Origin: an archaeon
GTDB taxonomy: Archaea > Nanobdellota > Nanobdellia > Pacearchaeales > DTIR01
DNA: 64,000 nucleotides
Assembly: GCA_043808285.1 (NCBI GenBank)
Contig: JAZDFA010000015.1
Location: 46,085-110,084, forward strand
Reading direction: 5' to 3'
This document shows, piece by piece, positions 1 through 37,693 of the stretch. A model generated the notes under the pieces. The model searched no databases. It was not told where the DNA came from and saw nothing but the letters and a program-made list of their open reading frames with translations. Both the position numbers and the translations under genes were made by a program. Position 1 is the stretch's first letter; each line of letters begins with the position of its first letter.

Positions 1-301
1 CCAGCTTGAAAAATGGTACAAAAACCCATGCAAGCAATATAGGCTTTCTTGGACCCCAATAATCCTGCCAGGATAAAAGATCAAAAGCTATCCTTTTGGA
101 TTTCATCATATACTCTGCTTCATCCCACCACAATGGCTGAGTTTTAGTGATAAAAAAATAGAATAATCTTAATGCTATGGCTATAAAAAATACCCCGAAA
201 AGAGCCTTGTTGTAAGGATCTTTAAACCACAAAGAAATCTTGTCTGCTAATTTAGTCTTTCTTGCAGCTAAAGTTGAATTTTTATCTGTTTCAGTTACCA
301 T
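1..301 (-). CDS. GT-C family glycosyltransferase (ArnT/PMT-like), N-terminal part only; gene continues beyond window start
   Basis: Minus-strand ATG at 299-301; translation MVTETDKNS...LWWDEAEYMMKSKRIAFDLLSWQDYWGPRKP has hydrophobic TM segments and a DEx motif typical of the first periplasmic loop of ArnT/PMT GT-C enzymes. Not in the ORF track because it is truncated by the window edge. Confidence 0.45.
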   Translation of the reverse strand, partial: MVTETDKNSTLAARKTKLADKISLWFKDPYNKALFGVFFIAIALRLFYFFITKTQPLWWDEAEYMMKSKRIAFDLLSWQDYWGPRKPILLAWVFVPFFKL

Positions 302-305
302 TTTT

Positions 306-1343
306 TTAGACAATCCCTTTCCAATTTTTTATTGCAATCTCATATCTCTCCATTGTTCCTGTATCAAACCATTGGGTATCAAATTTGTAACCATATAGCT
401 TCCCTTCTTTTGCAACTCTTGGAAAAATATCTTTTTCAAGCATTGAAAATCCCTTCGAGATATAATCTAAAACCTTGGGATCAATTATGTAGAATCCTGC
501 ACTTATAAAGTTAGATGGTTCCTCTCCCTTTGGAGGTTTTTCAACAAATTCTATTATTTTATCTCCATCAAGCTTTGCAACACCGTAATCATTTGGGTTA
601 TCTATTTTTTTGAGTGCAATAGTTATAAGCGCTTTATTTTTAACATGATTTTCTAACATCTCATCTATGTTTACATTTTTTAGTTCATCTCCATTTGACA
701 CTATAAATGGTTCATGAACCTTGTTTTTTAGATAAAAAAGCGGCCCGGCAGTTCCAAGGGGTTCATCTTCTTCTATATAGCTAACTCTTAATCCCAATTT
801 TAACCCATCTCCAACATGACTCTTTATCTTGTCTTTTAAATAACCAACTGAAAGAGTTATATCTCCTATTTCATACTTCTTAAATAGATCAAAAAGATGC
901 TCCAATATTGGCTTGCCGCACACAGGCAGCAGGGGTTTAGGAATCTCATAAGTGAGAGGTTTTAATCTTGTTACTTTTCCTCCGCAGAGGATTACTGCAG
1001 TTCTTACTTCTCCTCCTCGAATTATCCGATAGGAATCTGAATCCTCATGGTGTGTTGAAAATTCTATTAATTGGGAATCTTCTAATGCCCTTATTTTGTG
1101 TATCTGGCCAGGCGAGACATCTAGTATATCCCCTTCATTCAAAACTATCTCTCCTTTTTCATCAGAAATAATAAATTTTCCGCTTAGTACATAAAAAGTT
1201 TCATCTTTATTTTTATGATAATGGAAAGATGACTGATTGCCTTTTTTTAGAGTTAGCATCTTTCCGCAATAATCTTTGTTTACAATCCATTCTTCCATCC
1301 CCCAGGATTTTTCAACATTCTTGATAAAACTTCTCTTATTCAT
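306..1343 (-). CDS. Bifunctional cupin (PMI-type) / sugar-1-phosphate nucleotidyltransferase fusion
   Basis: N-terminal cupin region (WGMEEWIV...GDILDVSPGQIHKIRA) followed by an NTP_transferase fold (AVILCGGKVTRLKPLTYEIPKPLLPV...EPLGTAG). Confidence 0.65.
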   Translation of the reverse strand: MNKRSFIKNVEKSWGMEEWIVNKDYCGKMLTLKKGNQSSFHYHKNKDETFYVLSGKFIISDEKGEIVLNEGDILDVSPGQIHKIRALEDSQLIEFSTHHEDSDSYRIIRGGEVRTAVILCGGKVTRLKPLTYEIPKPLLPVCGKPILEHLFDLFKKYEIGDITLSVGYLKDKIKSHVGDGLKLGLRVSYIEEDEPLGTAGPLFYLKNKVHEPFIVSNGDELKNVNIDEMLENHVKNKALITIALKKIDNPNDYGVAKLDGDKIIEFVEKPPKGEEPSNFISAGFYIIDPKVLDYISKGFSMLEKDIFPRVAKEGKLYGYKFDTQWFDTGTMERYEIAIKNWKGIV

Positions 1344-1348
1344 TTTAC

Positions 1349-2371
1349 TTAAAAGTTAATCTCCCTTATTCTTAGCTCTTTCTTAGTTCCATTGCATCCT
1401 TCACACAATGGAATTTTGCCCTTATTTTTCAAAATTTGTTTCCTAAGAGAGATATATTTTTTGTTGTTCCATATATATTTAAATGACTGATTAAAAACAT
1501 TTCCAAGAACATATCCGTTATGAGAATCTCTACAGCAGGGTACTACACTACCATCAACATTTACAGTAGTTTCTTCCCAAAGATAATCACAAAAATTTCT
1601 TTTTTGCCCTTCCACCTCATTAGAATATCTCCTTAGCCGAGGATTTTTAGGGAGATAACCTTTTATTGGCTCATAAACAGAAATATCCATTACTCCTACA
1701 GTCTTAAAAAATATAGAATCAACTCCTATTTTTTTGGCAAGTTTTATTGCATCCTTTATTTCATGCTCATTGTGTTTCATGACTATAAACTGGAGCTTTA
1801 TTGCGGGGTATTTGGTATTCTCTTTCTTTTTTTGGGCAACAAGGGTTTGCAATGCTTCTATTACTTTCTTGAAACTTCCATTTTTGCGATATTTACGGTA
1901 GGTTTTTTCACTCGCACCATCTAAACTGATTATTATTTCATCTAATCTGCTTTTTACTATTTCTGCTGCATTATCCTTGGTTAAAAAAAAGCTGTTGGTG
2001 CTTGTATTGACAAAAACGCCTTGTTTTTTGGCGTAACTTATCATTTTAAACAAATTCTTGTTAAGCAAAGGTTCGCCCCAATTCCAAAGCCTTAAATGAA
2101 TTATGTATGGAGAAAATTGATCGAAAACTCTCTTAAAATCTTCAAATCTCATTGCTCCTTTTTCTCTGCCCAATAAACCCAAGCCGGTAGGACATAAAGG
2201 GCATTTAAGATTGCAAAAATTAGTTGGCTCAATCATCAATGTGGTAGGCATTCCAAAAACATGTGGAATTCTCAAAAATTTTGATAATTTTACATGCATC
2301 AGATTGAATAATCTGGAAGGTCTTGTAAGTATACAAGTAAAAAAGTACCTGCCCTTTGTCTTAAAATCCAT
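1349..2371 (-). CDS. Radical SAM enzyme with C-terminal SPASM/twitch domain
   Basis: CxxxCxxC motif (CNLKCPLC) and C-terminal Cys cluster (VVPCCRDSHN...CEGCNG). Confidence 0.8.
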   Translation of the reverse strand: MDFKTKGRYFFTCILTRPSRLFNLMHVKLSKFLRIPHVFGMPTTLMIEPTNFCNLKCPLCPTGLGLLGREKGAMRFEDFKRVFDQFSPYIIHLRLWNWGEPLLNKNLFKMISYAKKQGVFVNTSTNSFFLTKDNAAEIVKSRLDEIIISLDGASEKTYRKYRKNGSFKKVIEALQTLVAQKKKENTKYPAIKLQFIVMKHNEHEIKDAIKLAKKIGVDSIFFKTVGVMDISVYEPIKGYLPKNPRLRRYSNEVEGQKRNFCDYLWEETTVNVDGSVVPCCRDSHNGYVLGNVFNQSFKYIWNNKKYISLRKQILKNKGKIPLCEGCNGTKKELRIREINF

Positions 2372-2447: not shown

Positions 2448-2948
2448 TTGCCTATGACTATGAATAAAACTTTGATGATTGTTTTGGGTGGCGGAGGTCA
2501 TACAAAACAGATGCTTAAACTAGTAAGCCTTCTTGGAAAAGAATATGATTATGAGTATTTAGTCTCATCTGGGGATTCTATCTCTGAAAAGAAGATAGAG
2601 ATAAAGGGAAAGGTATTCAGAATAATCAATCCTAGAGGTATGGATGACAAAAACATTCTCAAGGTGATAATAAAGTTTGTTCCTTCAACTATCCAGGCAT
2701 TGTCTGTGCTGTTCAAAAGCAAATCTTGTTGTATTCTCTCTGCAGGACCTGCATTATCTATCCATATCTCTTACCTGGGAAAATTCCTATTTGGCAAAAA
2801 AGTCATATTCCTGGAATCCTGGTCACGAGTGGAGTCCAGCTCTATGGCCGGAAAATTTTGCTATCCTTTCGCAGACCTATTCTTTGTGCAATGGCCAGAA
2901 GGGAAGAAAAATTACCCTCATGCTATCTATGCTGGGAGGTTAGGTTAA
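2448..2948 (+). CDS. Alg14-like membrane-anchor subunit of a split UDP-GlcNAc transferase
   Basis: LMIVLGGGGHTKQML motif characteristic of Alg14/EpsF-like proteins. Stop immediately abuts the Alg13-like ORF. Confidence 0.65.
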   Translation: MPMTMNKTLMIVLGGGGHTKQMLKLVSLLGKEYDYEYLVSSGDSISEKKIEIKGKVFRIINPRGMDDKNILKVIIKFVPSTIQALSVLFKSKSCCILSAGPALSIHISYLGKFLFGKKVIFLESWSRVESSSMAGKFCYPFADLFFVQWPEGKKNYPHAIYAGRLG

Positions 2949-2950
2949 AA

Positions 2951-3394
2951 ATGATATTTGTAACTGTTGGAACTGGCAAATTCGATTCAATTATAAAAGA
3001 GATAGATAGAATTTCCCCCACACTCAAAGAAAAGATAATTGCGCAAATAGGAAACGGAAAATACGTGCCTAAAAACTTCAAGTATTTCAGATTTAATCAA
3101 TCTCTTGATGAATATTACAAAAAATCTAAATTGATAATATCTCATGGGGGTGCTGGAACCATTTATGAGCTTCTCAAAATGAAAAAGAAGGTAATTGCAA
3201 TAGCAAATCTTGATAGAACTGACTCTCATCAGGAAGAGATACTAAATGCATTATCCCAAGAGAATAACTTGATATGGTGCAAAAACGTTAGAGAGATAGA
3301 AGGTATAATAAAAAAATCAAACTCTATTCATCTGAAAAAATATAAGAAACCTCAATGCATGATACATCATAAAATAAAGGAGTTTTTAGGATAG
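2951..3394 (+). CDS. Alg13-like catalytic subunit (GT28 C-terminal domain) of a split UDP-GlcNAc transferase
   Basis: MIFVTVGTGKF...ISHGGAGTIYE motifs. ATG at 2951 lies 2 nt after the Alg14-like stop. The ORF-track entry 2726..3394 is an over-extension in the same frame. Confidence 0.65.
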   Translation: MIFVTVGTGKFDSIIKEIDRISPTLKEKIIAQIGNGKYVPKNFKYFRFNQSLDEYYKKSKLIISHGGAGTIYELLKMKKKVIAIANLDRTDSHQEEILNALSQENNLIWCKNVREIEGIIKKSNSIHLKKYKKPQCMIHHKIKEFLG

Positions 3395-3401: not shown

Positions 3402-5234
3402 ATGTGTGGAATTTTTGGAGTATATGACAAAGGCAAGAGTACTGATCCTGAAAAGGTAAAGAAAGCGACAAATCTAATGGATCATAGGGGCCCTGATGGA
3501 TTTGGTTTTTATTTTGATAATGAAATTTCATTGGGGCATAGAAGGTTGTCTATAATAGATTTGAGTGAAAATGCCAAACAACCAATGTGCAATGAAAAAC
3601 AGGATATTTGGATTGTATATAATGGTGAAATCTATAATTTCAAGGAAATCAGAGAAGAATTAGAAGTATTGGGCCATGAATTCAAAAGCAATAGTGATAC
3701 AGAAGTCATAATACACGCTTATGAAGAATGGAGAGAGTCTTGTCTTCAAAGATTCAATGGGATGTTTGCATTTGCAATATGGGACTCTGCAAACAAAAGA
3801 CTTTTTTTAGCAAGAGACAGGTCAGGAGTAAAACCACTCTATTATTATATGGACAAGGACAGGTTTATCTTCGCCTCTGAAATAAAATCAATATTGGAGA
3901 TGGACGTTCCAAGAGCAATAAATGAAGATGCATTATATGACTACTTTAACTATTTTATACAGATAGGAGAAGAAACATTATTCAAGAATATAAGAAGCAT
4001 CCCTCCGGCACATTACTTTGTTCTCCAGGACAACAAGATAACTGCTAGAAGATACTGGGACTTTGAATATCTGACAGAAAATAAATCAGAAATTGAGTGG
4101 AGTTCAATAATAGAAAACGAATTATTCCAAAGTGTAAACAAAAGAATGATATCAGATGTCCCGATAGGTGCATTTATCTCTGGAGGTGTTGATAGTTCTG
4201 CAATAGTCTCATTTATGAAAGAGCAGTCTAAAACAGTAAAAACTTTCTGTGTGGGCTCTGGTAATGACCTTGAATTAAAAAGTGCAAGAGCCGCTGCAGA
4301 GGAACTTCAAACAGACCATCATGAAATAATGATAACCGCTGAGGATTTCTCAAAGAATCTCAGAAAGATGATATGGCATTATGACATGCCTGTTTCTTTT
4401 GCATCTTCAATACCACTTTATTTTGTTTCAAAGATGACAAAGGGAAATGCAACAGTGGTATTGACTGGTGAAGGGGCAGATGAAATATTTGCAGGATACA
4501 ATCGCTATAAACTGATGTTAAATGCAAATAACCTTTCAAAAATAACAAAGGTAATCCCAAGTAAAATGAAATCAATATCATCCAACATGATTACATCATT
4601 CTATTCAGATTCCCGCTATAAAAAGAATATAGAGATGTCAATAAATGGATTCAATCTGGATTATGCTACAGGTATAAACATACTGATTGGCAAAGAAAGA
4701 GACGCCTTATTCAAAGGAATAAAACAAAAGACATGGAATAAAAAAGTGGAAAGGTTACTTAACGCCAAACAAACAGACTTCCTCAATAAACTGCTCTATC
4801 TAGATTTCAAGACATATCTTGTGGAGCTCTTAATGAAGCAGGATAAAATGAGCATGGCTGCATCAATTGAAAGCAGAGTTCCTTTCCTAGACTATCATCT
4901 GATACAAACTGTTGCCAAAATACCCTCTAACCTGAAGTTAAACAACGGGATTGGAAAGTATATATTGAAAAAATCTCTGGAGAAAAGGCTTCCAAAAGAA
5001 AGGATATATCAGAAAAAGATAGGTTTTACTGTACCAATCAATAAATGGTTTAGAAAAGACCTGAATAGTTATGTTGCAGATTCTATAATAGATGACTCTA
5101 ACATCATAGGCAAATTTTTTGATGTTTCCAAGGTAAAAAAGATGATTGAAATGCAAAAATCCAAAGACTACTCCCTGCAATTATGGGCAATACTTAATTT
5201 CAAACTATGGATGGAGGAGTTTAAAGTTCAATAA
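3402..5234 (+). CDS. asnB: Asparagine synthase (glutamine-hydrolysing) family amidotransferase
   Basis: N-terminal MCGIFGVY Ntn-hydrolase nucleophile and SGGVDSS PP-loop; 610 aa. Confidence 0.85.
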   Translation: MCGIFGVYDKGKSTDPEKVKKATNLMDHRGPDGFGFYFDNEISLGHRRLSIIDLSENAKQPMCNEKQDIWIVYNGEIYNFKEIREELEVLGHEFKSNSDTEVIIHAYEEWRESCLQRFNGMFAFAIWDSANKRLFLARDRSGVKPLYYYMDKDRFIFASEIKSILEMDVPRAINEDALYDYFNYFIQIGEETLFKNIRSIPPAHYFVLQDNKITARRYWDFEYLTENKSEIEWSSIIENELFQSVNKRMISDVPIGAFISGGVDSSAIVSFMKEQSKTVKTFCVGSGNDLELKSARAAAEELQTDHHEIMITAEDFSKNLRKMIWHYDMPVSFASSIPLYFVSKMTKGNATVVLTGEGADEIFAGYNRYKLMLNANNLSKITKVIPSKMKSISSNMITSFYSDSRYKKNIEMSINGFNLDYATGINILIGKERDALFKGIKQKTWNKKVERLLNAKQTDFLNKLLYLDFKTYLVELLMKQDKMSMAASIESRVPFLDYHLIQTVAKIPSNLKLNNGIGKYILKKSLEKRLPKERIYQKKIGFTVPINKWFRKDLNSYVADSIIDDSNIIGKFFDVSKVKKMIEMQKSKDYSLQLWAILNFKLWMEEFKVQ

Positions 5235-5235: not shown

Positions 5236-6699
5236 ATGGTAGATGTACTTCTTGTTAACCCACCCAGAATGAACAAAATTCCTACTCCCAGGGAGATAGA
5301 TTGCGCCAATCCGCAAAAAGATTTTTTGGTGCAGCCACTCTATCTTGCATATCTAGCCTCTTCAGCCATTTCTGCAGGTTGCACTGTAAAACTTTTCGAC
5401 CTTAATCTCTCAGACGAAACATATGATTCTATTATTCCCTCTATAAAAGAAGAAAAACCTAAATTAGTAATTGGAGGGTTTGCAATCCCATCTATATATC
5501 TAGATCTGCAGCTTTGCAGTATATCCAAGAAGTATTGCAGTGCTCCTGTAGGAATCTGGGGACCAATACCTTCCTCATTACGAGACGTCCTTTACAAGAA
5601 ATTCCCAGACCTTGATTTCATAATTGAGAATGAGCCTGAATTTGTAATGATTGAAATTGCTAAAAATATCAAGAGAAACAAAAAAGATATCTTCTCGGGT
5701 GTTAAGGGTGTAAGTTACAGAAAAGGCAAGAAGATCATATTCAACGGTTTTAGACCTCTTGGAAATCTTGACAATCTTCCTATTCCCGCTTATGATTTGC
5801 TCCTAATGGAGAAATATCATACTCCTTACAACAGGAGACTTCCTATGACAATAATGAGAACCTCCAGAGGGTGCGTTGCAAGATGCATATTCTGCCTTAT
5901 AGGGGGATTAGATAACCCCTACAAGGGATATGGTACAAAATGGCGTTCCCAGGGTGCCAAAAGAACATTGAAAGAAATAGAGTATGTTGTAAAAAACTTC
6001 GGTGTGAAAGAAATAAACTTTTTTGATGCAGAATTCACAATAGACAAACAAAGGGTAAAAGAAATATGCAAGGAGATAATAGAAAAAAATCTAGATATAA
6101 TGTGGAACTGTAATGCTAGAGTAGACTTAGCAGATTATGAAACATTAACTTGGATGAAGAAAGCTGGCTGCTATGGAGTTAGCTACGGTGTTGAAAGCAT
6201 AAATGAAGAGGTATTAAAAATATGCAAAAAAAACATAAATGAGCACCAAGTAGAAAATGCAGTAATTGTCACTAAAAAAGCAGGCATACAACCGGCACTT
6301 TATTTTATGATTGGGCTTCCTGGAGAAAAAGTTGAAAGTATAAAGCAGACAATAGCCTTTGCTAAAAAAATGGCTCTTAAATATGACTTAAGACCCCAAT
6401 GCACTATTGCAACACCCTATCCTGGAACAGAATTCTGGAATATGGCTAAAAAAGAAGGCTGGATAAAAGAAGATTTTGACAAACTAGAACAGACAACTGC
6501 GTCGATTTCATATCCCTCTCTTTCCCAAAAAGAATTAGAGTATTGGCATAAACAATTTTACAAAGAGATAGTATTAAATCCTCTAAGGCTAATAAAAAGG
6601 GTGTTGAGAATAAGACATTGGAATGAAATTAAAAGTATACCTATGCACATAAAAGAATTCTCTGTTGCATTATTCACAAAAATGAGGTATGTAAGATAA
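5236..6699 (+). CDS. B12-binding-domain radical SAM enzyme (class B)
   Basis: N-terminal B12-binding Rossmann-like region then SRGCVARCIFC radical SAM motif. True ATG at 5236, directly after the asnB stop; track ORF 5146 is over-extended. Confidence 0.8.
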   Translation: MVDVLLVNPPRMNKIPTPREIDCANPQKDFLVQPLYLAYLASSAISAGCTVKLFDLNLSDETYDSIIPSIKEEKPKLVIGGFAIPSIYLDLQLCSISKKYCSAPVGIWGPIPSSLRDVLYKKFPDLDFIIENEPEFVMIEIAKNIKRNKKDIFSGVKGVSYRKGKKIIFNGFRPLGNLDNLPIPAYDLLLMEKYHTPYNRRLPMTIMRTSRGCVARCIFCLIGGLDNPYKGYGTKWRSQGAKRTLKEIEYVVKNFGVKEINFFDAEFTIDKQRVKEICKEIIEKNLDIMWNCNARVDLADYETLTWMKKAGCYGVSYGVESINEEVLKICKKNINEHQVENAVIVTKKAGIQPALYFMIGLPGEKVESIKQTIAFAKKMALKYDLRPQCTIATPYPGTEFWNMAKKEGWIKEDFDKLEQTTASISYPSLSQKELEYWHKQFYKEIVLNPLRLIKRVLRIRHWNEIKSIPMHIKEFSVALFTKMRYVR

Positions 6700-6703: not shown

Positions 6704-7558
6704 ATGAATGAAAAAGTGGTTGTTGCAGTATGCACTCACAATAGAAAGCAACATCTTTTACAAACAATAAAAGCATTTAACAAAATAAAAAGAAAAAATT
6801 TCAAACTTGCAATAATTGATTCTTCAGACCAAGAACTCATAAAAAATGAAAAGAAAGGAATAGATTTCTACCTACACATGCCAGATAAAAAACCCCTCTC
6901 TATAAAAAGGAATATTGCAATAAATAAGATTGATTCTTCATTAATATTATTCACAGATGATGATTGCATTCCTTCAAAAAATTGGGTCAACGAAATAACC
7001 AGCCCTTTTAAAGATGATAGGGTAATGTGTGTAACTGGGAAGACAATTCCTTCAGAGGAATTCAAGAAAAGCAACTATGAAAGGATATTCACTTTTGATA
7101 ATCTAGGTAATAATAAAAGAGAAATAATAAAACATTTTGGGCTGCATAATCTCTGGAAAGTAGGTCACGGAAACAATATGGCATTCCGCACTTCAGTATT
7201 TAAGGAAATAAGACTTTTTGATGAAAGTCTAGGAGTAGGCAGCCCAATAAATGCTGGAGAAGATGTAGACATGTTCTATAGAATTTACAAAAAAGGTCAT
7301 AAAATAATATTCAATCCTAATGCAATAATAATTCATAAGCATATATCTAAAGATGATAATCTAATTGTTTGGGCTCGTAAAAATACATATGCATCAAATA
7401 AAGTCCTTCTAAAGAACATTGATTTCAATACATTTGTTATATTTCTCGGAGGGATACTCAAATTATCCTTGCAGACAATTAGTGCATTTATTAAAAAAGA
7501 CCCACTTAAAGGAAAAGTCAAATTCAATTCATTAATCGGATGGATAGGAATAAAATGA
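6704..7558 (+). CDS. Family 2 glycosyltransferase
   Basis: VVAVCTHNRKQ...FTDDDCIPSKNW GT-A DxD-type motifs. Confidence 0.8.
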   Translation: MNEKVVVAVCTHNRKQHLLQTIKAFNKIKRKNFKLAIIDSSDQELIKNEKKGIDFYLHMPDKKPLSIKRNIAINKIDSSLILFTDDDCIPSKNWVNEITSPFKDDRVMCVTGKTIPSEEFKKSNYERIFTFDNLGNNKREIIKHFGLHNLWKVGHGNNMAFRTSVFKEIRLFDESLGVGSPINAGEDVDMFYRIYKKGHKIIFNPNAIIIHKHISKDDNLIVWARKNTYASNKVLLKNIDFNTFVIFLGGILKLSLQTISAFIKKDPLKGKVKFNSLIGWIGIK

Positions 7559-9579: not shown

Positions 9580-9692
9580 TTAGGATGCTTGAAGAACACG
9601 CGACTACACACTAAACAGAGGAAATCTTGGTAGATTTCCTATGCATAGAAAAACAAAGTTTTTCTCTGTTTAGTCAAGTGTTCTTGACATAA
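9580..9692. repeat. Left copy of a repeated structured element: 32-nt core TTAGGATGCTTGAAGAACACGCGACTACACAC ... palindrome GTCAAGTGTTCTTGACATAA, with an internal hairpin CTAAACAGAG/CTCTGTTTAG
   Basis: Directly compared with the 10895-10963 copy. Core and terminal palindrome are conserved; the interior differs. Confidence 0.6.
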
Positions 9693-10894: not shown

Positions 10895-10963
10895 TTAGGA
10901 TGCTCAAGAACACGCGACTACACACTTCAAGTGTGTAGTTTTGGTCAAGTGTTCTTGACATAA
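10895..10963. repeat. Right copy of the repeated structured element (core TTAGGATGCTCAAGAACACGCGACTACACAC, perfect 9-bp hairpin ACTACACAC-TTCAA-GTGTGTAGT, palindrome GTCAAGTGTTCTTGACATAA)
   Basis: Directly compared with the 9580-9692 copy. Confidence 0.6.
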
Positions 10964-12577: not shown

Positions 12578-12810
12578 TTTATGTTTGTTATTTATATTCT
12601 TTTTAAATTTTCTGTTATCTGCTTATGATTAATTTAACCAAATGAATGTCTTTTTTGAAATTCCTTTTACTAAAATTAAAATTGCAAATATTAACCATCT
12701 ATCTTTTATTTTCATTTTCTATATCTAGAGATATTTAAATAATTATTAGATATTACAAACAAGTCTAATAAAAGTATTCTAATATACAAAATTACTGAAA
12801 ATTTTTTATA

Positions 12811-20364: not shown

Positions 20365-20365
20365 A

Positions 20366-22364: not shown

Positions 22365-22365
22365 A

Positions 22366-30358: not shown

Positions 30359-31275
30359 AATTCTTGATTACTGGTGGTGCAGGATTTATAGGAAGCCATA
30401 TAGCAAGAGCGCTTATTTCTGAGAATAAATGCAAGCCTGAAGATATAACTGTTTTTGATAATCTTAGTGTTGGAAAGGAAGAGAACATCCCTAAAGGATG
30501 CAAGTTCATAAAAGGAGACTTGAAAAATAAAGAGGAGATTATGAATGCTCTTAAAGGGATAGATCTGATATTCCATAATGCTGCATTTGTTTCTATCCGG
30601 GGCAGTTTTGAAAAATTAAGAGAAGAAATAGACACCAATTGCTCCGGCACATTGAATGTTTTTGAAGCCTGTCTTAAAAATAAGGTGAAGAAGGTGGTTT
30701 TTGCATCCTCCATGGCAGTATATGGAGAGCCAATAAATCTGCCTGTGGATGAAAAACACCCCCTTAATACTATCTCTCCCTATGGGTTGAGTAAAATAAG
30801 AGGAGAGATGTACTGCAGGATATTTGAAGAGCAGGGAATAGACTATGTAATACTGAGATACTTCAATACCTATGGAACAAAGCAGACTCCTTCCCCCTAT
30901 GTGGGGGTTATAACTACTTTTATTAATCAGGCTATTGATAAAAAGCCAATTACAATTTATGGTGATGGCAATCAAACAAGAGATTTTATCTGGGTAGAAG
31001 ATATCGCAAAGGCAAACTTGCTTGCAGCCTTCTCTAAAAAAAATGGAGTCTATAATGTTGCAAGCGGAACTGAAATCTCAATAAACCAAATAGCAGAAAA
31101 GATAATAGAATCAATTGGAGGGGGGAAAGAATATCTTCCAAATCCGTTTGGAGAGATAACTAGAATAAAGGCGGACATCTCTCTCATAAAAAAAGATTTG
31201 GGTTTTAAGCCTGTTGGCAAGGTATTGGAAAAAATATCGGAATTAGTGGATTTCTGGAGAAAACAGAAGAAATAA
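30355..31275 (+). CDS. NAD-dependent epimerase (UDP-hexose 4-epimerase-like SDR)
   Basis: MKFLITGGAGFIGSHIARALI. ATG 30355 overlaps the upstream stop (ATGA); the track ORF is over-extended to 30313. Confidence 0.75.
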   Translation: MKFLITGGAGFIGSHIARALISENKCKPEDITVFDNLSVGKEENIPKGCKFIKGDLKNKEEIMNALKGIDLIFHNAAFVSIRGSFEKLREEIDTNCSGTLNVFEACLKNKVKKVVFASSMAVYGEPINLPVDEKHPLNTISPYGLSKIRGEMYCRIFEEQGIDYVILRYFNTYGTKQTPSPYVGVITTFINQAIDKKPITIYGDGNQTRDFIWVEDIAKANLLAAFSKKNGVYNVASGTEISINQIAEKIIESIGGGKEYLPNPFGEITRIKADISLIKKDLGFKPVGKVLEKISELVDFWRKQKK

Positions 31276-31280: not shown

Positions 31281-32678
31281 ATGAAAGTTTTATTTATACT
31301 TCCAGAAATTGGCTCCTATATCTCAATGCACCCAGGTATCGGGCAACTTTCTTCAGTTCTAAAAAAAGCAGGGCATAAAACTGACTTAATAGAATTTGGA
31401 AAATATGATATAAATCAAGTTTTCAGCAAGATTGATTCATGGAAGCCAGAAATAATTGCAATTTCAATAAATACCCACATGTTTTCCTATACTAAAAGAA
31501 TAACTAAAGAGATAAAAAGCAAATATCCTAATATGAAGATATTTGTCGGGGGAGTTCATATGAAGTTGTCCCCCGAATCTATAAATGAGTTGGAAGTTGA
31601 TGGTGTCTGTATAGGTGATGGAGATAATAAATTTCTTGAACTTGTAAATAAGATAGCAAAAAAACAGAACTATCTTAAAACTGGGAATTTCTGGTTTAAG
31701 AAAGGAAAAAAGATAATAAAAAATCCAATAACAGACTTTGCAGAGGATTTGAATAAACTTCCCATACCAGATTACTCTATCTTTAAGGAATTCAAAAGAA
31801 ATGGCAAAGAGGTCATCCCCCATTTTATGTTCTCAAGAGGATGCCCATTTAATTGTACGTACTGCTGCAATAGTGCCTTAATAAAAAAATTTCCCAATCC
31901 CTCCAAGTATGTTAGGATGCTAAGTGTCAAAAGAGTCATGGAAATTATGGATTATTTCGAGAAAAATTATAAGTTTAACCATTTTGAGATAGATGATGAT
32001 ACTTTCTCCCTAAATAAAAAATGGATATTGGAATTCTGCAGGGAATTCAAGAAAGGGTTCAAGAAAACATTTGTATGCAATATAAGAGTTGAAACTGCAG
32101 ATGAAGAGATTCTGCAGTCATTAAAAGATGCTGGTTGTGTGTTGATAAAAGTGGGTGTTGAAACAGGCAATGAAAATCTCAGAAAGACAATACTTGGAAG
32201 ATTTATGAAAAATGAGCAGATAATCAAGGTTTTTGAAATAGCAAGAAGAATAGGATTGAAAACATGCACATTTAATATGATTGGTGTTCCGGGTGAAACA
32301 AAGCAGACAATATTAGACAGCATAGAACTTAACAAGAAATTAAAGCCAGACTACATGCAAGTATCTCTTTTCTATCCATATAAAAATACCCCGCTTTATA
32401 ACACATGCATAAGAAATCATTATATTAGGGAAAAAGTAAAAGAAGAGGCGTTCACAGATTATTTTAAAGACAGCATACTTAACCTTCCAACCATCTCAAG
32501 AAAAGAACTAATCCATTATAAGAAGTATTTTAAGTTCAACATTTACAGAAGTTATTCTATGGAAAAGGCGTTTGTCTCCCTTATTGTGGATAGCAAAATT
32601 TACAGATCATTAAGAGGCACTAAAATTCTTTCATTAATTAAAAAAATGAAAAATGCTGTAATACCAGAAAAGAGGTAA
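31281..32678 (+). CDS. B12-binding-domain radical SAM enzyme (class B)
   Basis: N-terminal B12-binding-like domain and SRGCPFNCTYCCNS radical SAM motif. Confidence 0.8.
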   Translation: MKVLFILPEIGSYISMHPGIGQLSSVLKKAGHKTDLIEFGKYDINQVFSKIDSWKPEIIAISINTHMFSYTKRITKEIKSKYPNMKIFVGGVHMKLSPESINELEVDGVCIGDGDNKFLELVNKIAKKQNYLKTGNFWFKKGKKIIKNPITDFAEDLNKLPIPDYSIFKEFKRNGKEVIPHFMFSRGCPFNCTYCCNSALIKKFPNPSKYVRMLSVKRVMEIMDYFEKNYKFNHFEIDDDTFSLNKKWILEFCREFKKGFKKTFVCNIRVETADEEILQSLKDAGCVLIKVGVETGNENLRKTILGRFMKNEQIIKVFEIARRIGLKTCTFNMIGVPGETKQTILDSIELNKKLKPDYMQVSLFYPYKNTPLYNTCIRNHYIREKVKEEAFTDYFKDSILNLPTISRKELIHYKKYFKFNIYRSYSMEKAFVSLIVDSKIYRSLRGTKILSLIKKMKNAVIPEKR

Positions 32679-32935: not shown

Positions 32936-33868
32936 TTATTTTTTTGTTCCAAGAACTGCAAAGCCTATTCTATCTTCCATCTTAAGTTCTGTTTTAAAGC
33001 CTTCTTTCCTAAACCATTCTTCTATCTCTGTTATTGTGTGCCTATGTACATACTCTGGAGAGAAATGGTCAAAAAGGCTCCACATAAATTCTTTCGTTGT
33101 TTTGTTGAATGCGGGCCTTCTTCCATTTCTAGTATTAATTTCTGCATACACCTTTGCAAAGGGTGCAAGAATCCAGCAGATAGCATAAATCATTGTTATG
33201 GGCAGCTTGTTTACAAATCCTCTTGATGCATAAATTAGAGATACTATCTTTGTATCATCTTTTCTATCCTTCCTGTATAGCCCAAGATAAAATTTTCCCC
33301 TCTTCTTTAATAATGGAAGCAGAGTCTTGAAGGCATTGTAAGTATTTGGCGTATGATGCAAGACTCCAAAAGAATAAATCATATCAAATGACCCTTTCTT
33401 AAATGGAGCCCTATCAATATTTCCCCTAACATACTGCGCAGAATCTGGAATTTTACTAAGATTATTCTTCCTATTAGAGTACATCATTATACTAGTGCTC
33501 ATATCCAGTCCTACTGCTAATCCCCTTTTTCCAACTAGTTCTGAAACAGCCATTTCAAGGTAGCCTCTTCCACAGCCTGCTTCAAGGGTATATTTTCCTT
33601 TCATCTTTTCTTTAGTTGTATTAAAATCATTTAAGAAAAGCTTTCTTACATTATCCATATCTGGAATGCCTTCTTTTTTCATTATCCCCCATTCTTTACT
33701 GAAGCTTAGTTCAGTTTTCTTGTATCTCTCTATTTGGGGGATAAGATTAGGTATTCCATCAACTACTAGAAACATATGCCCCTCCCCGCAAGTTATAGTC
33801 TTGCCCGAATACCTAAAACTGCTCTTGCATAAAGGGCAGCTCAAAATTCCTAACAACTTATCATTCAT
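32936..33868 (-). CDS. SAM-dependent methyltransferase with N-terminal Trm112-like zinc-ribbon domain
   Basis: N-terminal LGILSCPLCKSSF...TCGEGHMFLVVDGIPNL (Trm112/DUF343-like) then LEAGCGRGYL...VGLDMS class I MTase motifs. Confidence 0.65.
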   Translation of the reverse strand: MNDKLLGILSCPLCKSSFRYSGKTITCGEGHMFLVVDGIPNLIPQIERYKKTELSFSKEWGIMKKEGIPDMDNVRKLFLNDFNTTKEKMKGKYTLEAGCGRGYLEMAVSELVGKRGLAVGLDMSTSIMMYSNRKNNLSKIPDSAQYVRGNIDRAPFKKGSFDMIYSFGVLHHTPNTYNAFKTLLPLLKKRGKFYLGLYRKDRKDDTKIVSLIYASRGFVNKLPITMIYAICWILAPFAKVYAEINTRNGRRPAFNKTTKEFMWSLFDHFSPEYVHRHTITEIEEWFRKEGFKTELKMEDRIGFAVLGTKK

Positions 33869-33942: not shown

Positions 33943-35469
33943 CTAGATCTTATCAATAGATTTCTTCCTTAGTATCAAAAGTTTAAGCAGTTTAATGTCT
34001 TCTCTATTAATCCCTTTAATAAAAATTAATACTGTAAAATATAAAATTGCCCCTATAACAATTGCTATAGTACTAAATAAAATGGAAAGCGGCTGAATAT
34101 TGGAGATAATTATCATGGGAATTACCATGATAATGCTTGCAAAAATAGGCTTCAAAATCAAAGACATCCTGACCCCCACATTAAGTTCCCTCTTTGAAAT
34201 TATTGCCAATGAAAAAACATAAAAATATCTACTTATAAATGCAGCAATTGCGGCCCCTAAAGCGCCATATATCGGTTTTATTGAACTTAGCCATTTTATA
34301 AAAATAAAATTAAGGAGTATACTGATAATTGCAGTAACCAAGGTTATCTTTGCAACGTATTGCGGTTTTCCTTTAGATATAAGAATTGTATTGAAAAAAA
34401 CCCCAGTTACCATCTCAACAATTAAAAAAGAGAGGATGTAAAGAGGTATTATTGCTGCGAGGTATTCAGTTCCGAAAAGATATATTATAAATGGTTTCAC
34501 AACAAAAATCAATCCAATTGCAGAAGGTATTGATATGATTGCAGAATAATAAACAAACTTTTCAAAAAATTTAGCGAGTTTTTTCCCCCTAAGTTGTGCA
34601 AAAACTGGGAAGCTTACTTGAGCAAAGGACATTAGTGCAGCTATACCTGTAACTATGTTTAATGCAACCTGATAAAATCCCACCACAGAAGTATCTGAAA
34701 TCAAGGCACCAAGCATTACAGTGTCTACATGTAAGAAAAATGTGGTTGAAATACCTGCAATAGAAGTGAAAAAAAGAAATTTCATCAACCTCTTTTTATC
34801 TATTTCTACAGTTTCTCCATGCAATAAGAAAGGATATTTCTTTTTTGTAATTATGAATAAAAAAACAAGGGAAAATGAAGATGAAAGAATCAATGCAAAA
34901 AGAATAGATTCAACCCTGTATTTTAGTATACCGATGAATAAAGAAACTAATAGTATCCTAGAAACTTGGAAAATGGCTTCTGAGGCAAAAACATACTTTA
35001 TCTTTTTTACAGAATATGCGAAATAAAGAAAACTTGTAAGAAGCGAAGTTACAAAAAGGTAGAGTGCTCCAATTTGCAATGACAAGCTTATGTAAGGCTT
35101 ATTAAGTATGTTCTCTGAGATAACTCTTGAAAGCAGGAAAAGCGCTATAGCCAAAAATCCTGCTACAAATATCTTCATTAAAAGGCAAAATTTGAAATAA
35201 CTTCTTGCCCTTACTTTGTTATTCTTTCCAAGCTCTTCTGAAACATATTTTAATGAAGTGAGATTGATGCCATACTCTATTAATCCCAGCAGAAGTAATA
35301 TGACGCTTAATGCTAAGGCGTACTGCCCAAATAATTCTGGCAGAAGCAATCTTGCCATCACTATTGTGAATATCAATCCTCCTGCTTTTGTGACTATATT
35401 AAAAAAGAAATTCCAGAAAGTATTCTTTAGTGTGCTCTGCCCTAGATTCTCTTTACCTATTTTTGCCAT
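33943..35469 (-). CDS. MOP-superfamily oligosaccharide flippase (Wzx-like)
   Basis: 508 aa, ~12-14 TM helices, composition typical of polysaccharide biosynthesis/Wzx proteins. Confidence 0.7.
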   Translation of the reverse strand: MAKIGKENLGQSTLKNTFWNFFFNIVTKAGGLIFTIVMARLLLPELFGQYALALSVILLLLGLIEYGINLTSLKYVSEELGKNNKVRARSYFKFCLLMKIFVAGFLAIALFLLSRVISENILNKPYISLSLQIGALYLFVTSLLTSFLYFAYSVKKIKYVFASEAIFQVSRILLVSLFIGILKYRVESILFALILSSSFSLVFLFIITKKKYPFLLHGETVEIDKKRLMKFLFFTSIAGISTTFFLHVDTVMLGALISDTSVVGFYQVALNIVTGIAALMSFAQVSFPVFAQLRGKKLAKFFEKFVYYSAIISIPSAIGLIFVVKPFIIYLFGTEYLAAIIPLYILSFLIVEMVTGVFFNTILISKGKPQYVAKITLVTAIISILLNFIFIKWLSSIKPIYGALGAAIAAFISRYFYVFSLAIISKRELNVGVRMSLILKPIFASIIMVIPMIIISNIQPLSILFSTIAIVIGAILYFTVLIFIKGINREDIKLLKLLILRKKSIDKI

Positions 35470-35471
35470 GA

Positions 35472-36401
35472 TTAATCTTCCTTTCGGTAGTATTCAATAG
35501 TTTCCTTTAAACCTTGTTCAAGAGAGATTGTTGGCTGCCATTCAAGATATTTTTTTGCTTTTGTTATATCTGGGCATCTCCTCTCAGGATCATCAGCTGG
35601 GAGGTTCTTGAAAGAAAGCTGAGATTCAGAATGCAATAACTCCAACACTTTTTTTGCAAGATCTACAATAGTTCTCTCATCAGGATTTCCAAGGTTGATT
35701 ACTTTTCCTTTTAAATTACTTGTGAACATCAGCTTCATCAATCCCTCCACCATGTCAGATACGTAACAACAACTTCTTGTTTGTTTTCCATCACCATAAA
35801 TTGTTATTTCCTTTCCCCCTAATGCCTGATTTATGAAGTTAGAAACAACTCTCCCATCATCCCTTTGCATTCTTGGGCCATAGGTATTGAATATTCTTGC
35901 TATCCTTAAGTCAATATTATACTTCCTCATATAGGCCATACACAATGCTTCTCCGAATCTCTTACTTTCGTCATACATTGAACGAATCCCATTAGGATTT
36001 ACATTCCCAAAATATTCTTCTGTTTGTGGATGCTGTAAGGGATTTCCATAAACCTCGCTTGTAGAAGTAAAAAGAAACCTTGCATTGTTCTTTCTTGCGA
36101 TCTCTAGCAAATTAAGTGTTCCAACAGAATTGGCCAGTAATGTTTCAATAGGCATGTTCTGATAATCTTTTGGAGAAGCAGGACTAGCCATATGAAGAAC
36201 AAAATTCAATTTTTCATCCAAATCGAATAGTTTAGTTATATCCTGTTGTAAAAAATTAAAGTTATTTTGTATGTGCTCTATGTTCTTTTTTCTTCCAGTG
36301 CAAAGATTATCTACGCATATGACCTCATATTTCTTAGATAATTTTTCGCAGATCCAAGAACCAATAAATCCTGCCCCTCCAGCAACCAAAACCCTTTCCA
36401 T
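35472..36401 (-). CDS. UDP-glucuronate decarboxylase (UDP-xylose synthase-like SDR)
   Basis: VLVAGGAGFIGSWICEKL...VICVDNLCTGRKKNIEH closely matches the UXS signature; immediately downstream of ugd. Confidence 0.75.
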   Translation of the reverse strand: MERVLVAGGAGFIGSWICEKLSKKYEVICVDNLCTGRKKNIEHIQNNFNFLQQDITKLFDLDEKLNFVLHMASPASPKDYQNMPIETLLANSVGTLNLLEIARKNNARFLFTSTSEVYGNPLQHPQTEEYFGNVNPNGIRSMYDESKRFGEALCMAYMRKYNIDLRIARIFNTYGPRMQRDDGRVVSNFINQALGGKEITIYGDGKQTRSCCYVSDMVEGLMKLMFTSNLKGKVINLGNPDERTIVDLAKKVLELLHSESQLSFKNLPADDPERRCPDITKAKKYLEWQPTISLEQGLKETIEYYRKED

Positions 36402-36403
36402 GA

Positions 36404-37693
36404 TTATCTCCCCACCGAGAGGTACTTAAAACCTAATTTTTTCATTCTTTCTTTATTGAAAATATTTCTGCCGTCTATTATTATATTTCCTTTAAGCTTT
36501 TCTTTTATTACAGTTAAATCTAAATCCTTAAATTCCGGCCAGTCAGTAAGGATAACTAAAGCGTCTGCATCTTTTGCAGCATCATAAGGATTCTTGCAAT
36601 ATTCTATATCCTTAAATATACCTTTTGCAACTTCCATTGCCTTAGGATCATATGCTTTAATTATTGCCCCTCTTTCTTTCATCTTCTCGATTATTTCAAT
36701 TGAAGGTGCTAGTCTCATATCATCTGTATTGGCTTTGAACGCCAATCCCAAAATAGCCACCTTTTTTCCCTTCAAAGTACCTAGGGATTTTTCTATTTTA
36801 AAAACAAAATGCTTTCTCATATTCTTATTTATTTTTTGCACTTGTTCAAATAATCCAGAATTAATCGAGTTCTTCCTTAATATATGAATTAATGCGTCTA
36901 GGTCTTTTGGAAAACAAAATCCTCCATAGCCTATTCCTGCTTTCAAAAAGTTAGTTCCAATTCTTTTATCCATTCCTACCCCTTTTGCAACAGTCTCTAT
37001 ATCTGCATTTGTCTTCTCGCAGAGTAATGCAATTAAATTTATTGTTGAAATCTTCTGTGCAAGCATTGCATTGCTTAGATGTTTTATCAATTCTGCAGAA
37101 TTTATGTCCGTAAATAATATGGGGGCATTAAGTGGTTTATAGATCTCTGAAAGCAAAGAGTACGCTCTTGAATTCTCAGCACCTATCACTATCCTGTCTG
37201 GATTCATGAAATCATAAACTGCAGAGCCCTCTCTTAAAAACTCTGGATTTACTGCTATATCAAACTCTGATTTCATGTTTGAAATTATGCTTTTAAGCCA
37301 CTTCGCAGTCTGTACAGGAACTGTGCTTTTTTCCACTATGACTTTGTATTTATCTGAAACAGATGCGATTTCTTTTGCAACATTGCCCACTGCACTTAAG
37401 TCTGGCTCTCCATTCTCTTTTGGAGGAGTGCCAACGCATATGAATATAATCTCTGATTCTCTTGCTGCTTTTTTTATGTCAGTTGTGAAAAAAAGTCTTC
37501 CTTCCTTGTAATTTCGCTTTACTAAATTATCTAATCCTGGCTCATATATTGGAATTTTATTATTTGTCAAATCTGAAATTTTTTCTTTGTTGTTATCAAC
37601 ACAAATTACTTTGTTTCCCAATTCTGCAAAACACGCCCCAGTAACCAACCCGACATATCCTGAACCTATAACTGCAATATTTCTAGAGGCCAT
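36404..37693 (-). CDS. ugd: UDP-glucose 6-dehydrogenase
   Basis: IAVIGSGYVGLVTGACFAELGNKVICVD, catalytic GGFCFPKD motif. Confidence 0.9.
   Translation of the reverse strand: MASRNIAVIGSGYVGLVTGACFAELGNKVICVDNNKEKISDLTNNKIPIYEPGLDNLVKRNYKEGRLFFTTDIKKAARESEIIFICVGTPPKENGEPDLSAVGNVAKEIASVSDKYKVIVEKSTVPVQTAKWLKSIISNMKSEFDIAVNPEFLREGSAVYDFMNPDRIVIGAENSRAYSLLSEIYKPLNAPILFTDINSAELIKHLSNAMLAQKISTINLIALLCEKTNADIETVAKGVGMDKRIGTNFLKAGIGYGGFCFPKDLDALIHILRKNSINSGLFEQVQKINKNMRKHFVFKIEKSLGTLKGKKVAILGLAFKANTDDMRLAPSIEIIEKMKERGAIIKAYDPKAMEVAKGIFKDIEYCKNPYDAAKDADALVILTDWPEFKDLDLTVIKEKLKGNIIIDGRNIFNKERMKKLGFKYLSVGR

Follow-up and report, generated by a model that had tools for sequence, protein, structure and literature searches.

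The radical tailoring of glycosides is well documented for antibiotic biosynthesis and for two cases involving lipid head groups. For NeoN, HygY, BtrN and the avilamycin epimerase the site of action is a carbinol carbon in a sugar or cyclitol (PMC10991966); MoeK5, a cobalamin-dependent radical S-adenosylmethionine (SAM) enzyme, adds a methyl group at a carbon centre of moenomycin A and co-clusters with Fom3 and HpnJ (PMC9204698); HpnJ and the archaeal calditol synthase Cds have been proposed to contract the ring of a lipid-attached hexose, downstream of a family 2 glycosyltransferase (GT2) and a deacetylase (PMC13459092). Here we analyse a 64,000-nt stretch of DNA from an archaeon of the Pacearchaeales (contig JAZDFA010000015.1; hereafter the window), in which nine intact radical SAM genes and one N-terminal fragment lie among approximately 34 tightly packed glycan-biosynthesis genes, about a quarter of which are radical SAM genes (positions 1–37693, hereafter the island). 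We propose that these enzymes tailor glycan precursors as integral enzymes of a surface-glycan pathway, a reading to which we assign a probability of about 0.6; confidence in the specific chemistry of the radical SAM enzymes is lower than in this general statement. Support for it is comparative. The nine enzymes have intact cluster motifs and stand in operon-like runs with glycosyltransferases, short-chain dehydrogenases/reductases (SDRs), an amidotransferase and a CE4-type deacetylase, and those characterised enzymes that appear nearest to them in sequence, BtrN, AprD4 and HpnJ, act on sugars or cyclitols.

All nine open reading frames (ORFs) matched PF04055 in Pfam (36–110 bits, curated cut-off 29.5), and each contained one canonical CxxxCxxC [4Fe–4S] motif. 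The first-pass annotation, made from the sequence alone, had placed nine intact radical SAM enzymes and a remnant in the island; number and positions agree with ours, the remnant being a 77-residue fragment, and the Fe–S/SAM cores, on whose absence that annotation had said its interpretation would fall, were found intact by the domain search. Its division of the nine into five SPASM and four B12-binding enzymes stood in part. PF13186 was matched by 1349–2371, 21297–22364, 25455–26558 and 29159–30358 and not by 19369–20364, and three of the four matching proteins conserve only four C-terminal cysteines (see below). PF02310, the B12-binding domain, is fused N-terminal to the radical SAM core in 12811–14277 (minus strand, 55 bits), 23245–24690 (plus strand, 82 bits) and 31281–32678 (plus strand, 63 bits; cut-off 32.1); in 5236–6699 (plus strand) it stayed below the cut-off (12.8 bits, E 0.11). 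The companion genes had been described correctly as glycan genes and were identified by Pfam and NCBIfam matches as four GT2 and four GT4 glycosyltransferases, a split Alg14/Alg13-like pair, an AsnB-type amidotransferase, two nucleoside diphosphate (NDP)-sugar nucleotidyltransferases, five SDRs (within 1–37693), four SAM methyltransferases, a FemAB-like gene, Wzx, UGD with a UXS-like gene, and two polytopic membrane proteins. The tight packing noted earlier is real, with a coding density of approximately 93% and many junctions of 1–7 nt, but most of these are of the TAAAATG type rather than literal ATGA overlaps. Radical SAM genes are spaced 1–5 nt from SDR, AsnB, CE4 and nucleotidyltransferase genes in same-strand runs.

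If 2% of the genes of the genome encode radical SAM enzymes, a frequency that was assumed rather than measured, the binomial probability of finding nine in approximately 34 genes is about 1e-8, and the radical SAM share of the island is far above any plausible genome-wide frequency. No radical SAM-like ORF was found in the housekeeping part of the window (37.7–64 kb). Because the paralogues are only 24–35% identical to one another, the density represents, on this measure of divergence, an accumulation of old, distinct enzymes. Recent tandem duplication as its source was ruled out by the same identities. Position 1 is the end of the window and not of the island, whose left boundary lies beyond it.

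The three proteins with a PF02310 domain are predicted to be class B (cobalamin-type) radical SAM enzymes that bind cobalamin. The fourth member of the group, 5236–6699, matched PF04055 only, as did its orthologue in the contig of a closer relative (JGI contig 3300042731); the four share 28–35% identity. HpnJ (TIGR03471) was the best NCBIfam model for three of the four, with scores of 215 (5236–6699), 201, 138 and 122 bits that fall well below its equivalog cut-off of 577.6; for 23245–24690 BchE (203 bits) and HpnJ (201 bits) were nearly tied, both below their cut-offs. The best match in the PDB was AprD4 for both 5236–6699 (E 2e-27) and 23245–24690, and the NCBIfam AprD4 model scored 128 bits on the former, against a cut-off of 500. 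No cobalamin uptake genes were found in the window.

One close parallel to this group is moenomycin biosynthesis. Work by Ostash et al. in 2009 is said to have assigned to MoeF5 the AsnB-type amidation of a lipid-linked uronic acid in the moenomycin A pathway. As there, a class-B radical SAM enzyme, an AsnB-like amidotransferase, glycosyltransferases and a uronic-acid supply are combined, in moenomycin on a lipid-anchored saccharide; in the window the AsnB gene (3402–5234, plus strand; Pfam Asn_synthase and GATase_7) lies 1 nt from the HpnJ-like gene 5236–6699 and also adjoins a radical SAM gene in the JGI contig, and UGD is encoded at 36404–37693. The two systems differ in that 5236–6699 has no detectable B12 domain and moenomycin is a secreted antibiotic.

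These matches would also suit a variant in which the glycan role is kept and the class-B-like enzymes are not C-methylases but either contract the ring of a lipid-linked (amino)hexose in the manner of HpnJ and Cds, giving a cyclitol (carbasugar), or act as AprD4-like diol dehydratases, giving deoxysugars. HpnJ and AprD4 as best models speak for it, as does the arrangement at 17959–24690, where a GT2, a CE4-like deacetylase and an HpnJ-like radical SAM enzyme mirror HpnI (GlcNAc transfer), HpnK (deacetylation) and HpnJ. So does the lack of a detectable B12 domain in 5236–6699; AprD4 is not known to use cobalamin. Like AprD4 in the AprD4/AprD3 system for C3' deoxygenation of apramycin, 5236–6699 joins a radical SAM core to a Rossmann-like N-terminal domain that escapes B12 detection, and both have SDR genes close by in a sugar-related setting; no AprD3-type partner was assigned, and diol dehydration would be a candidate role for 5236–6699. 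HpnK belongs to a deacetylase family other than CE4, to which the deacetylase of the window is related, and neither a hopanoid nor a glycerol dialkyl glycerol tetraether pathway provides a context in the window. Further weight against the variant comes from HpnJ scores of 122–215 bits, from the good B12-binding domain kept in three of the four proteins, and from the divergence of the four paralogues, which at 28–35% identity are unlikely all to share one rare rearrangement. Most characterised cobalamin-dependent radical SAM enzymes that act on glycosides are methylases (GenK, GenD1, Fms7 and MoeK5; PMC9204698). We regard the variant as unlikely.

Glycan tailoring as such gains from the genomic surroundings of the B12 family, which were analysed in 80 genome loci anchored on it and containing 152 B12-type radical SAM genes. 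Large membrane proteins were defined as those of at least 400 residues with at least six transmembrane segments, and proximity as a distance within 3.5 kb. Such a protein lay near 74 of the 152 genes, in 42 loci, and a Pfam scan of 75 large membrane proteins, including the window's own two and five from loci L002/L003, identified 28 as PMT_2, seven as PMT and two as STT3, all of them GT-C glycosyltransferases. Both large membrane proteins (75 of 1141 genes, against 12 of 631 control genes) and glycosyltransferases (74 of 1141, against 10 of 631) were 3.5–4 times commoner than in a crude control set of loci; apart from the Pfam-scanned large membrane proteins, genes in the fetched loci were labelled by phmmer with the window proteins, so that these counts are lower bounds. 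A full triad of an AglJ/ArnC-like GT2, a membrane protein and a B12-type radical SAM enzyme was present in 14 loci, which represent Woese-, Aenigmat-, Nano- and Undinarchaeota, Parcubacteria, Omnitrophota, Clostridia and deltaproteobacteria. The window contains two triads, one formed by the GT2 8670–9395, the membrane protein 11063–12577 and the radical SAM enzyme 12811–14277, the other by the GT2 17959–18660, the membrane protein 16286–17905 and the radical SAM enzymes of 19369–24690. The recurrence of B12-type radical SAM genes beside polyprenyl-phosphate-sugar-synthase-like GT2s and GT-C proteins suggests that lipid-linked sugars are tailored by radical chemistry before they are exported. 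In a metagenome-assembled genome (MAG) of a Woesearchaeota member (JAZDKJ010000013.1, 3500–21050) GT2s, putative membrane proteins of 500–580 residues and B12-type radical SAM genes recur along 18 kb, with at least two triads of adjacent GT2, putative membrane protein and B12 genes.

The gene set of the triads resembles the ArnC/ArnD/ArnT, GtrB/Gtr and AglJ/AglS pathways, in which a polyprenyl-phosphate monosaccharide is made inside the cell, tailored, flipped and transferred by a GT-C enzyme. The best NCBIfam models for the GT2 8670–9395 (plus strand) were AglJ, Dol-P hexose transferase and ArnC, and for 17959–18660 (plus strand) AglJ, PgfS, ArnC and PpgS; the window proteins all scored below the equivalog cut-offs. 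We know of no polyprenyl-phosphate-monosaccharide pathway in which the lipid-linked sugar is tailored by a radical SAM enzyme. The second membrane protein, 16286–17905 (minus strand, 539 residues, approximately eight transmembrane segments), matched P0205, a homolog that carries PF13231, at E 2e-19 and a PMT_2-like cluster at an hhalign probability of 92.7% over 379 columns, and is on this profile evidence a putative PMT_2/ArnT-like GT-C glycosyltransferase; its AlphaFold2 model, built from a six-sequence alignment, reached a mean predicted local distance difference test score (pLDDT) of 51 and was left out of the fold search. The first, 11063–12577 (minus strand, approximately eight transmembrane segments), had no Pfam match and aligned with a PMT_2-like cluster at 85% over the N-terminal 130 columns; we tentatively class it as a probable GT-C glycosyltransferase. 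Iterative hidden Markov model searches from both proteins within the fetched loci gathered two to three members each.

A deacetylase stands beside the second triad, as in the Arn pathway, whose ArnD is CE4-like. The protein encoded at 22366–23112 (plus strand, 248 residues) is a member of a rare family, for which 1.84 billion proteins yielded only 34 cluster representatives at E ≤1e-3. Its single sequence matched Pfam only at E 0.005, whereas the family profile matched polysaccharide deacetylases in the PDB at E 2e-8. The family has an invariant G-x-H-x-x-x-H (G82, H84, H88) and a C-terminal H212, and an N-terminal D-x-E is largely conserved. With metal-binding, acidic and C-terminal histidine motifs all present, it is, judging from profile and motifs, a divergent CE4 (NodB-type) deacetylase.

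A second alternative would put lipids in the place of sugars: the radical SAM enzymes would methylate, cross-link or form rings in the polyprenyl or dolichyl carrier or in scavenged archaeal membrane lipids, in the manner of Tes, Gms/Gmm or HpnP/R, and would have glycan genes as neighbours because both act on membrane-bound isoprenoids. Isoprenoid lipids are indeed the substrates of several characterised archaeal radical SAM enzymes, and carbons of glycerol monoalkyl glycerol tetraethers or hopanoids are methylated by enzymes of the B12 type; the strongest association of the B12 family was with membrane proteins, and many arrays of B12-type genes in Bathyarchaeia lack detectable glycosyltransferases. 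Those membrane proteins are mostly GT-C glycosyltransferases, however, no NCBIfam model of a lipid-modifying radical SAM enzyme came near its cut-off (the best Tes score was 28 bits), the twitch family described below is closest to BtrN, and it is genes for sugar-acting enzymes, namely SDR, AsnB, CE4 and nucleotidyltransferase, that lie 1–5 nt from the radical SAM genes. On balance we find lipid substrates improbable.

Comparison with related genomes separated a conserved backbone from a variable island. Of the fetched loci, the one conserved best was L079 (Candidatus Pacearchaeota archaeon RIFCSPLOWO2_01_FULL_38_24), which shares the gene order UXS–Wzx–UGD–SecD–SDR–SecF with the window, at identities of 63% for SecD, 63% for SecF, 69% for UGD and 66% for the UXS-like SDR, while the best radical SAM matches between the two are only 26–31% identical. 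The island is thus a variable slot beside this backbone, and its content differs between relatives. Judged by the backbone identities, the host is most likely a DPANN archaeon resembling Pacearchaeota. In a complete archaeal genome of 648 kb the SecDF position is likewise occupied by an island, though a smaller one, in which a single SPASM-type and a single B12-type radical SAM gene are accompanied by GT4s, Alg13/14, Wzx, an SDR and a nucleotidyltransferase. Glycan/radical SAM islands adjoin secD/secF in four loci, L001 (the 648-kb genome, unclassified), L021, L022 and L079, which include Pacearchaeota and Aenigmatarchaeota; an SDR epimerase gene lies between secD and secF in the window (37700–41230, minus strand, all three by Pfam matches) and in L079.

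Recurring gene sets were found both near and far. The JGI contig has four radical SAM genes in 16 kb and shares with the window the blocks AsnB–radical SAM–GT2–GT4, B12–Fem–SPASM and SPASM–GT4–GT4. Locus L002 contains the block methyltransferase–GT-C membrane protein–GT2–methyltransferase–radical SAM–SPASM–CE4 (248 residues)–B12, and L004 has four radical SAM genes alongside a Wzy polymerase and a gene of the Bac_transf sugar-transferase family. In L089 the order is GT4–nucleotidyltransferase–twitch–SDR–twitch–B12–Wzx, in which the sequence GT4–twitch radical SAM–SDR of the window is kept and a homolog of 29159–30358 was found at E 8e-128; the pair of twitch genes, one related to 29159–30358 and one like 25455–26558, is retained in the short contigs L086–L088. 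Arrays of higher density also exist. An Aenigmatarchaeota locus (L022) has five B12-type and one SPASM-type radical SAM gene in 14 kb together with GT2s and methyltransferases, adjoining SecDF, and a bacterium of the candidate phyla radiation (CPR; Nealsonbacteria MAG JACOYG010000020.1, 2254–16338) has eight B12-type genes in 14 kb. The latter array, denser than that of the window, is accompanied by one methyltransferase and one 566-residue protein, and no glycosyltransferase was detected in it. The density that had been called exceptional is therefore so relative to the rest of the window and not in comparison with these loci.

The differing island content would also suit a third view, that the radical SAM genes are unrelated cargo of a recombination-prone, hypervariable island and have no pathway in common with the glycan genes; a gene remnant, a gene of low G+C content and repeat-flanked genes are all present. 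This we consider slightly more doubtful still, as the same radical SAM families stand beside glycosyltransferase, NDP-sugar and GT-C genes in distant archaea and bacteria, the sets twitch–twitch, AsnB–radical SAM and GT2 with GT-C and B12 recur, and gaps of 1–5 nt in same-strand runs indicate co-transcription.

Among the radical SAM enzymes outside the B12 group, 1349–2371 (minus strand), 25455–26558 (minus strand) and 29159–30358 (plus strand) form one family with pairwise identities of 24–29%. Their best NCBIfam model was the maturase of a tungsten-cofactor oxidoreductase (TIGR04317), with 150, 158 and 141 bits against a cut-off of 380. The protein encoded at 1349–2371 shares 27–29% identity with the other two and has its cluster motif, CNLKCPLC, at residue 53 and five C-terminal cysteines. 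In alignments of the 25455–26558 family (n=7 and n=38; one of them, A8, also contains the other two window proteins) only C277, C295, C357 and C360 are kept among the C-terminal cysteines, corresponding to the first SPASM half-motif plus CX2C, and the seven-cysteine SPASM pattern (CX9-15GX4C ... CX2CX5CX3C ... C) was not conserved across the 38 sequences. A search of the PDB with 25455–26558 as single sequence gave no match at E 1e-3 or better, whereas the family profile identified BtrN as the best match (E 2e-31), followed by SkfB, PqqE, CteB and SuiB; the alignment with BtrN spans two stretches and pairs the four conserved cysteines with those of the BtrN C-terminal domain. Because BtrN was the top profile match and the four cysteines are aligned, the three proteins are assigned to a BtrN-like twitch type, with one predicted auxiliary cluster rather than a full seven-cysteine SPASM domain. 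They resemble BtrN, NeoN and HygY in combining a radical SAM core with a short C-terminal four-cysteine auxiliary-cluster domain. They differ from BtrN, which has approximately 250 residues, in their length of 340–399 residues, complete barrel and Pfam SPASM match, and from all three in belonging to an archaeal surface-glycan locus and not to an actinomycete or Bacillus aminoglycoside cluster. The two remaining enzymes are 21297–22364 (plus strand; PF13186 at 23.5 bits; six C-terminal cysteines) and 19369–20364 (plus strand; PF04055 at 110 bits), which also has six C-terminal cysteines and for which the best NCBIfam model was the PTO1314 family, with HpnH weaker and both below cut-off; its nearest PDB entries were CteB and BlsE.

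An AlphaFold2 model of 25455–26558 had a pLDDT of 92.8. Because only two short N-terminal helices precede the barrel, the model indicates that the protein has no recognition domain of the kind found in enzymes that mature RiPPs (peptides made on ribosomes and modified after translation). Foldseek with this model returned SuiB, DesII, BlsE and viperins with similar scores and TM scores of approximately 0.6, SuiB being the top match. The fold alone does not decide the function of 25455–26558, and the sequence-profile search is more informative.

That the radical SAM enzymes mature a ribosomal peptide or a secreted or surface protein, with B12 C-methylases and SPASM cross-linkers in proteusin or sactipeptide style, would agree with the best-known roles of both classes, with that Foldseek match and with weak NCBIfam maturase matches (PapB 72 bits, rSAM_ocin_1 up to 121, ApyD up to 136), but is very improbable, as all these scores are far below cut-off, BtrN outranks every peptide maturase with the family profile, the cluster motif begins at residues 31–53 in four of the five non-B12 enzymes and leaves no room for a recognition domain (in 29159–30358 it begins at residue 81, behind about 80 N-terminal residues that this check does not cover), no peptidase or ABC exporter was matched by Pfam in the island, gaps between its genes hold only short, TTG-started or low-complexity ORFs and no precursor-like one in an island that is 93% coding, and precursor, peptidase and exporter genes are absent from the homologous loci as well. 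A RiPP reading was rejected on precursor ORFs, on room for a recognition domain, on the AlphaFold2 model and on the profile ranking with BtrN first.

The first-pass annotation had likewise seen no precursor peptides beside the SPASM genes and had argued for tailoring of sugars or a lipid-linked glycan rather than a RiPP cluster; all comparative tests agree with it, and in other genomes the close homologs of both radical SAM classes sit among glycosyltransferase, NDP-sugar, Wzx and AsnB genes and not with RiPP genes. Its statement that neither class is a normal component of surface-glycan loci must be withdrawn, given that the combination recurs in uncultivated archaea, CPR and other uncultivated bacteria.

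Several observations weigh against the proposal that the enzymes tailor glycan precursors. Every substrate and reaction has been read from context and distant homology, and all NCBIfam scores of the radical SAM enzymes are far below equivalog cut-offs. The JGI contig and L002 come from fairly close relatives, which makes conserved gene order in them weak evidence of functional coupling. Because phmmer labelling showed a glycosyltransferase in only 33 of the 80 B12-anchored loci, the B12 family as a whole is not exclusively glycan-linked, and the Bathyarchaeia arrays mentioned above have no detectable glycan genes. Both GT-C assignments rest on profile similarity, for 11063–12577 at only 85% over 130 columns, and no AglB/STT3 oligosaccharyltransferase was matched among the window proteins scanned, so that the mark of an agl locus is missing. 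The Foldseek search with 25455–26558 did not separate sugar-acting (DesII, BlsE) from peptide-acting enzymes (SuiB, CteB, SkfB). Distant homologs of the twitch family (identity ≤28%) stand mostly outside glycan contexts; the association with glycan genes is specific to the close subfamily.

Under glycan tailoring, the island could be read as modules of two kinds. In the first, acting at the level of NDP-sugars, adjacent nucleotidyltransferases and SDRs would supply the sugars, and a nucleotidyltransferase, the GalE/LegB-like SDR and the twitch enzymes 1349–2371, 25455–26558 and 29159–30358 would work together. The twitch enzymes would remove a hydrogen atom from a carbinol carbon, in a nucleotide sugar or in the nascent glycan, leading either to a ketone, as in BtrN chemistry, or to return of hydrogen at the opposite face, as in epimerisation of the NeoN/HygY type; keto, epimeric or deoxy sugars would thus arise without NAD chemistry. 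In the second module the AglJ/ArnC-like GT2s (8670–9395, 17959–18660) would load a hexosamine or hexuronate onto polyprenyl phosphate, and at the cytoplasmic face the sugar could be deacetylated by the CE4-like 22366–23112, amidated by AsnB (3402–5234) and O-methylated by the methyltransferases. The class-B-like enzymes 12811–14277, 23245–24690 and 31281–32678, and 5236–6699 with no detectable B12 domain, would modify unactivated carbons, most likely by C-methylation, as MoeK5 does in moenomycin, with HpnJ/Cds-like ring contraction or AprD4-like dehydration as alternatives. After flipping, the GT-C proteins 11063–12577 and 16286–17905 would transfer the modified sugar to a surface acceptor. 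The main oligosaccharide would be built by the cytoplasmic GT4, GT2 and Alg13/14 enzymes and flipped with Wzx.

The other genes of the island are as follows. At its left end, 306–1343 (minus strand) encodes a cupin fused to a sugar-1-phosphate nucleotidyltransferase (Pfam Cupin_2 and NTP_transferase; best NCBIfam model mannose-1-phosphate guanylyltransferase, below cut-off). The membrane half of the split glycosyltransferase is an Alg14/PssD-like protein at 2448–2948 (plus strand; NCBIfam PssD/Cps14F, 134 bits, cut-off 110), and its Alg13-like catalytic half, with the GT28 C-terminal domain (Pfam Glyco_tran_28_C), lies at 2951–3394 (plus strand; start methionine at 2951 from the translation). 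Downstream of 5236–6699 follow a GT2 (6704–7558, plus strand; Glycos_transf_2) and a GT4 (7540–8667, plus strand; Glycos_transf_1); further GT4s are encoded at 26726–27835 (minus strand; Glycos_transf_1) and 27888–29117 (plus strand; Glycos_transf_1 and Glyco_transf_4). A second sugar-1-phosphate nucleotidyltransferase, for which the best NCBIfam models were rmlA_long and an AglF-like one, is located at 14759–15592 (plus strand; NTP_transferase). Methyltransf_11 matched the SAM methyltransferases at 15626–16267 (plus strand), 18671–19339 (plus strand) and 32936–33868 (minus strand). The SDR at 20366–21244 (plus strand; Epimerase, 3Beta_HSD) is an HpnA-like sugar epimerase/reductase (NCBIfam HpnA 103 bits, below cut-off), and that at 30313–31275 (plus strand; Epimerase) is the GalE/LegB-like NDP-sugar epimerase/dehydratase (galE 174 bits, below cut-off). 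Conserved backbone genes here are the Wzx-type flippase (33943–35469, minus strand; Polysacc_synt; approximately 13 transmembrane segments), the UXS/ArnA-C-like SDR (35472–36401, minus strand; Epimerase) and the UDP-glucose 6-dehydrogenase UGD (36404–37693, minus strand), with the N-terminal, central and C-terminal domains of UDPG_MGDP_dh. A FemAB-family/GNAT-like transferase (24754–25428, plus strand; FemAB and Acetyltransf_6) is wedged between a B12-type and a twitch radical SAM gene, in an arrangement identical to that of the JGI contig, and this placement hints that the glycan carries aminoacyl or acyl groups.

Traces of rearrangement were seen at two sites. The remnant is a 77-residue ORF (14232–14465, minus strand) with a CNSKCFYC motif; it terminates in FDITFKCNSKCFYCDRWKIK, the N-terminus of a radical SAM enzyme with its cluster motif, runs into the start of 12811–14277, and shows weak similarity to 21297–22364 (phmmer E 1e-3). 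G+C content dips sharply over 12578–14758, to 24% in 12811–14277 and 17% in the gap 12578–12810, against approximately 33% for the island. The coincidence of this dip with a truncated radical SAM fragment suggests that an older radical SAM gene was destroyed when DNA was recently inserted or replaced here. The second site is the gene for a GDP-mannose-4,6-dehydratase-like SDR (9771–10730, plus strand; GDP_Man_Dehyd), which has a short direct repeat on both sides (elements 9583–9692 and 10897–10963). It consists of 21 nt that are exact at 9592–9612 and 10906–10926, the only two occurrences of this core in the window, and 24 nt that are 96% identical at 9669–9692 and 10940–10963; copy 2 is hairpin-capable and copy 1 is interrupted by an insertion of approximately 57 nt. 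The repeat could indicate either a gene cassette or an element resembling a terminator.

With approximately 33% G+C, the window is chromosomal DNA of an archaeon; it encodes the large subunit DP2 of DNA polymerase D (59091–62528), an RNA polymerase subunit of the Rpb3 type, ribosomal proteins, tRNAs and 5S rRNA. An Rfam scan gave only tRNAs and 5S rRNA, and no riboswitch was found in the island. At 42114–42204 ARAGORN predicted a tRNA with a four-base anticodon, and Rfam a tRNA at 42115–42203; this is probably an intron-containing archaeal tRNA. Near it are a stand-alone 5S rRNA (42993–43104) and a PIN-domain gene (42261–42776). Amid the housekeeping genes, 49141–49959 encodes a tyrosine recombinase (Phage_integrase with an N-terminal SAM-like domain), which may be an archaeal XerA-type chromosome resolvase rather than the integrase of a mobile element.

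Surface glycans are the main interface of ultrasmall DPANN and CPR cells with hosts and viruses, and their chemistry has hardly been studied. In the literature searched, which was incomplete, we found no description of radical SAM-rich glycan islands in DPANN or CPR, nor of a module of GT2, B12-type radical SAM enzyme and GT-C, in line with the earlier view of an essentially uncharacterised system. A bolder extension, which we offer tentatively and think more doubtful than the reading of the island itself, is that an unrecognised pathway is widespread in DPANN, CPR, Omnitrophota and other lineages, in which a GT2 would load the sugar onto its lipid carrier, a cobalamin-type radical SAM enzyme would alkylate or rearrange it at an unactivated carbon and a GT-C would transfer the resulting non-canonical sugar to the cell surface; with BtrN-like twitch enzymes at work on NDP-sugars as well, ultrasmall symbionts would routinely draw on radical chemistry to diversify their surface glycans. 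The island would then be among the richest examples of such tailoring. If radical SAM enzymes do tailor sugars here, C-methylated, epimerised, deoxygenated or carbocyclic sugars would be common on the surfaces of much of uncultivated microbial diversity, made by enzymes that have so far been investigated chiefly in the biosynthesis of antibiotics, lipids and cofactors. Two compact enzyme sets, one of paired twitch enzymes, an SDR and a nucleotidyltransferase, the other of a GT2, a CE4-like deacetylase, a B12-type radical SAM enzyme and a GT-C, would be available for new radical carbohydrate chemistry, and a need for cobalamin and low-potential reductants would join the ways in which such organisms are known to depend on their hosts.

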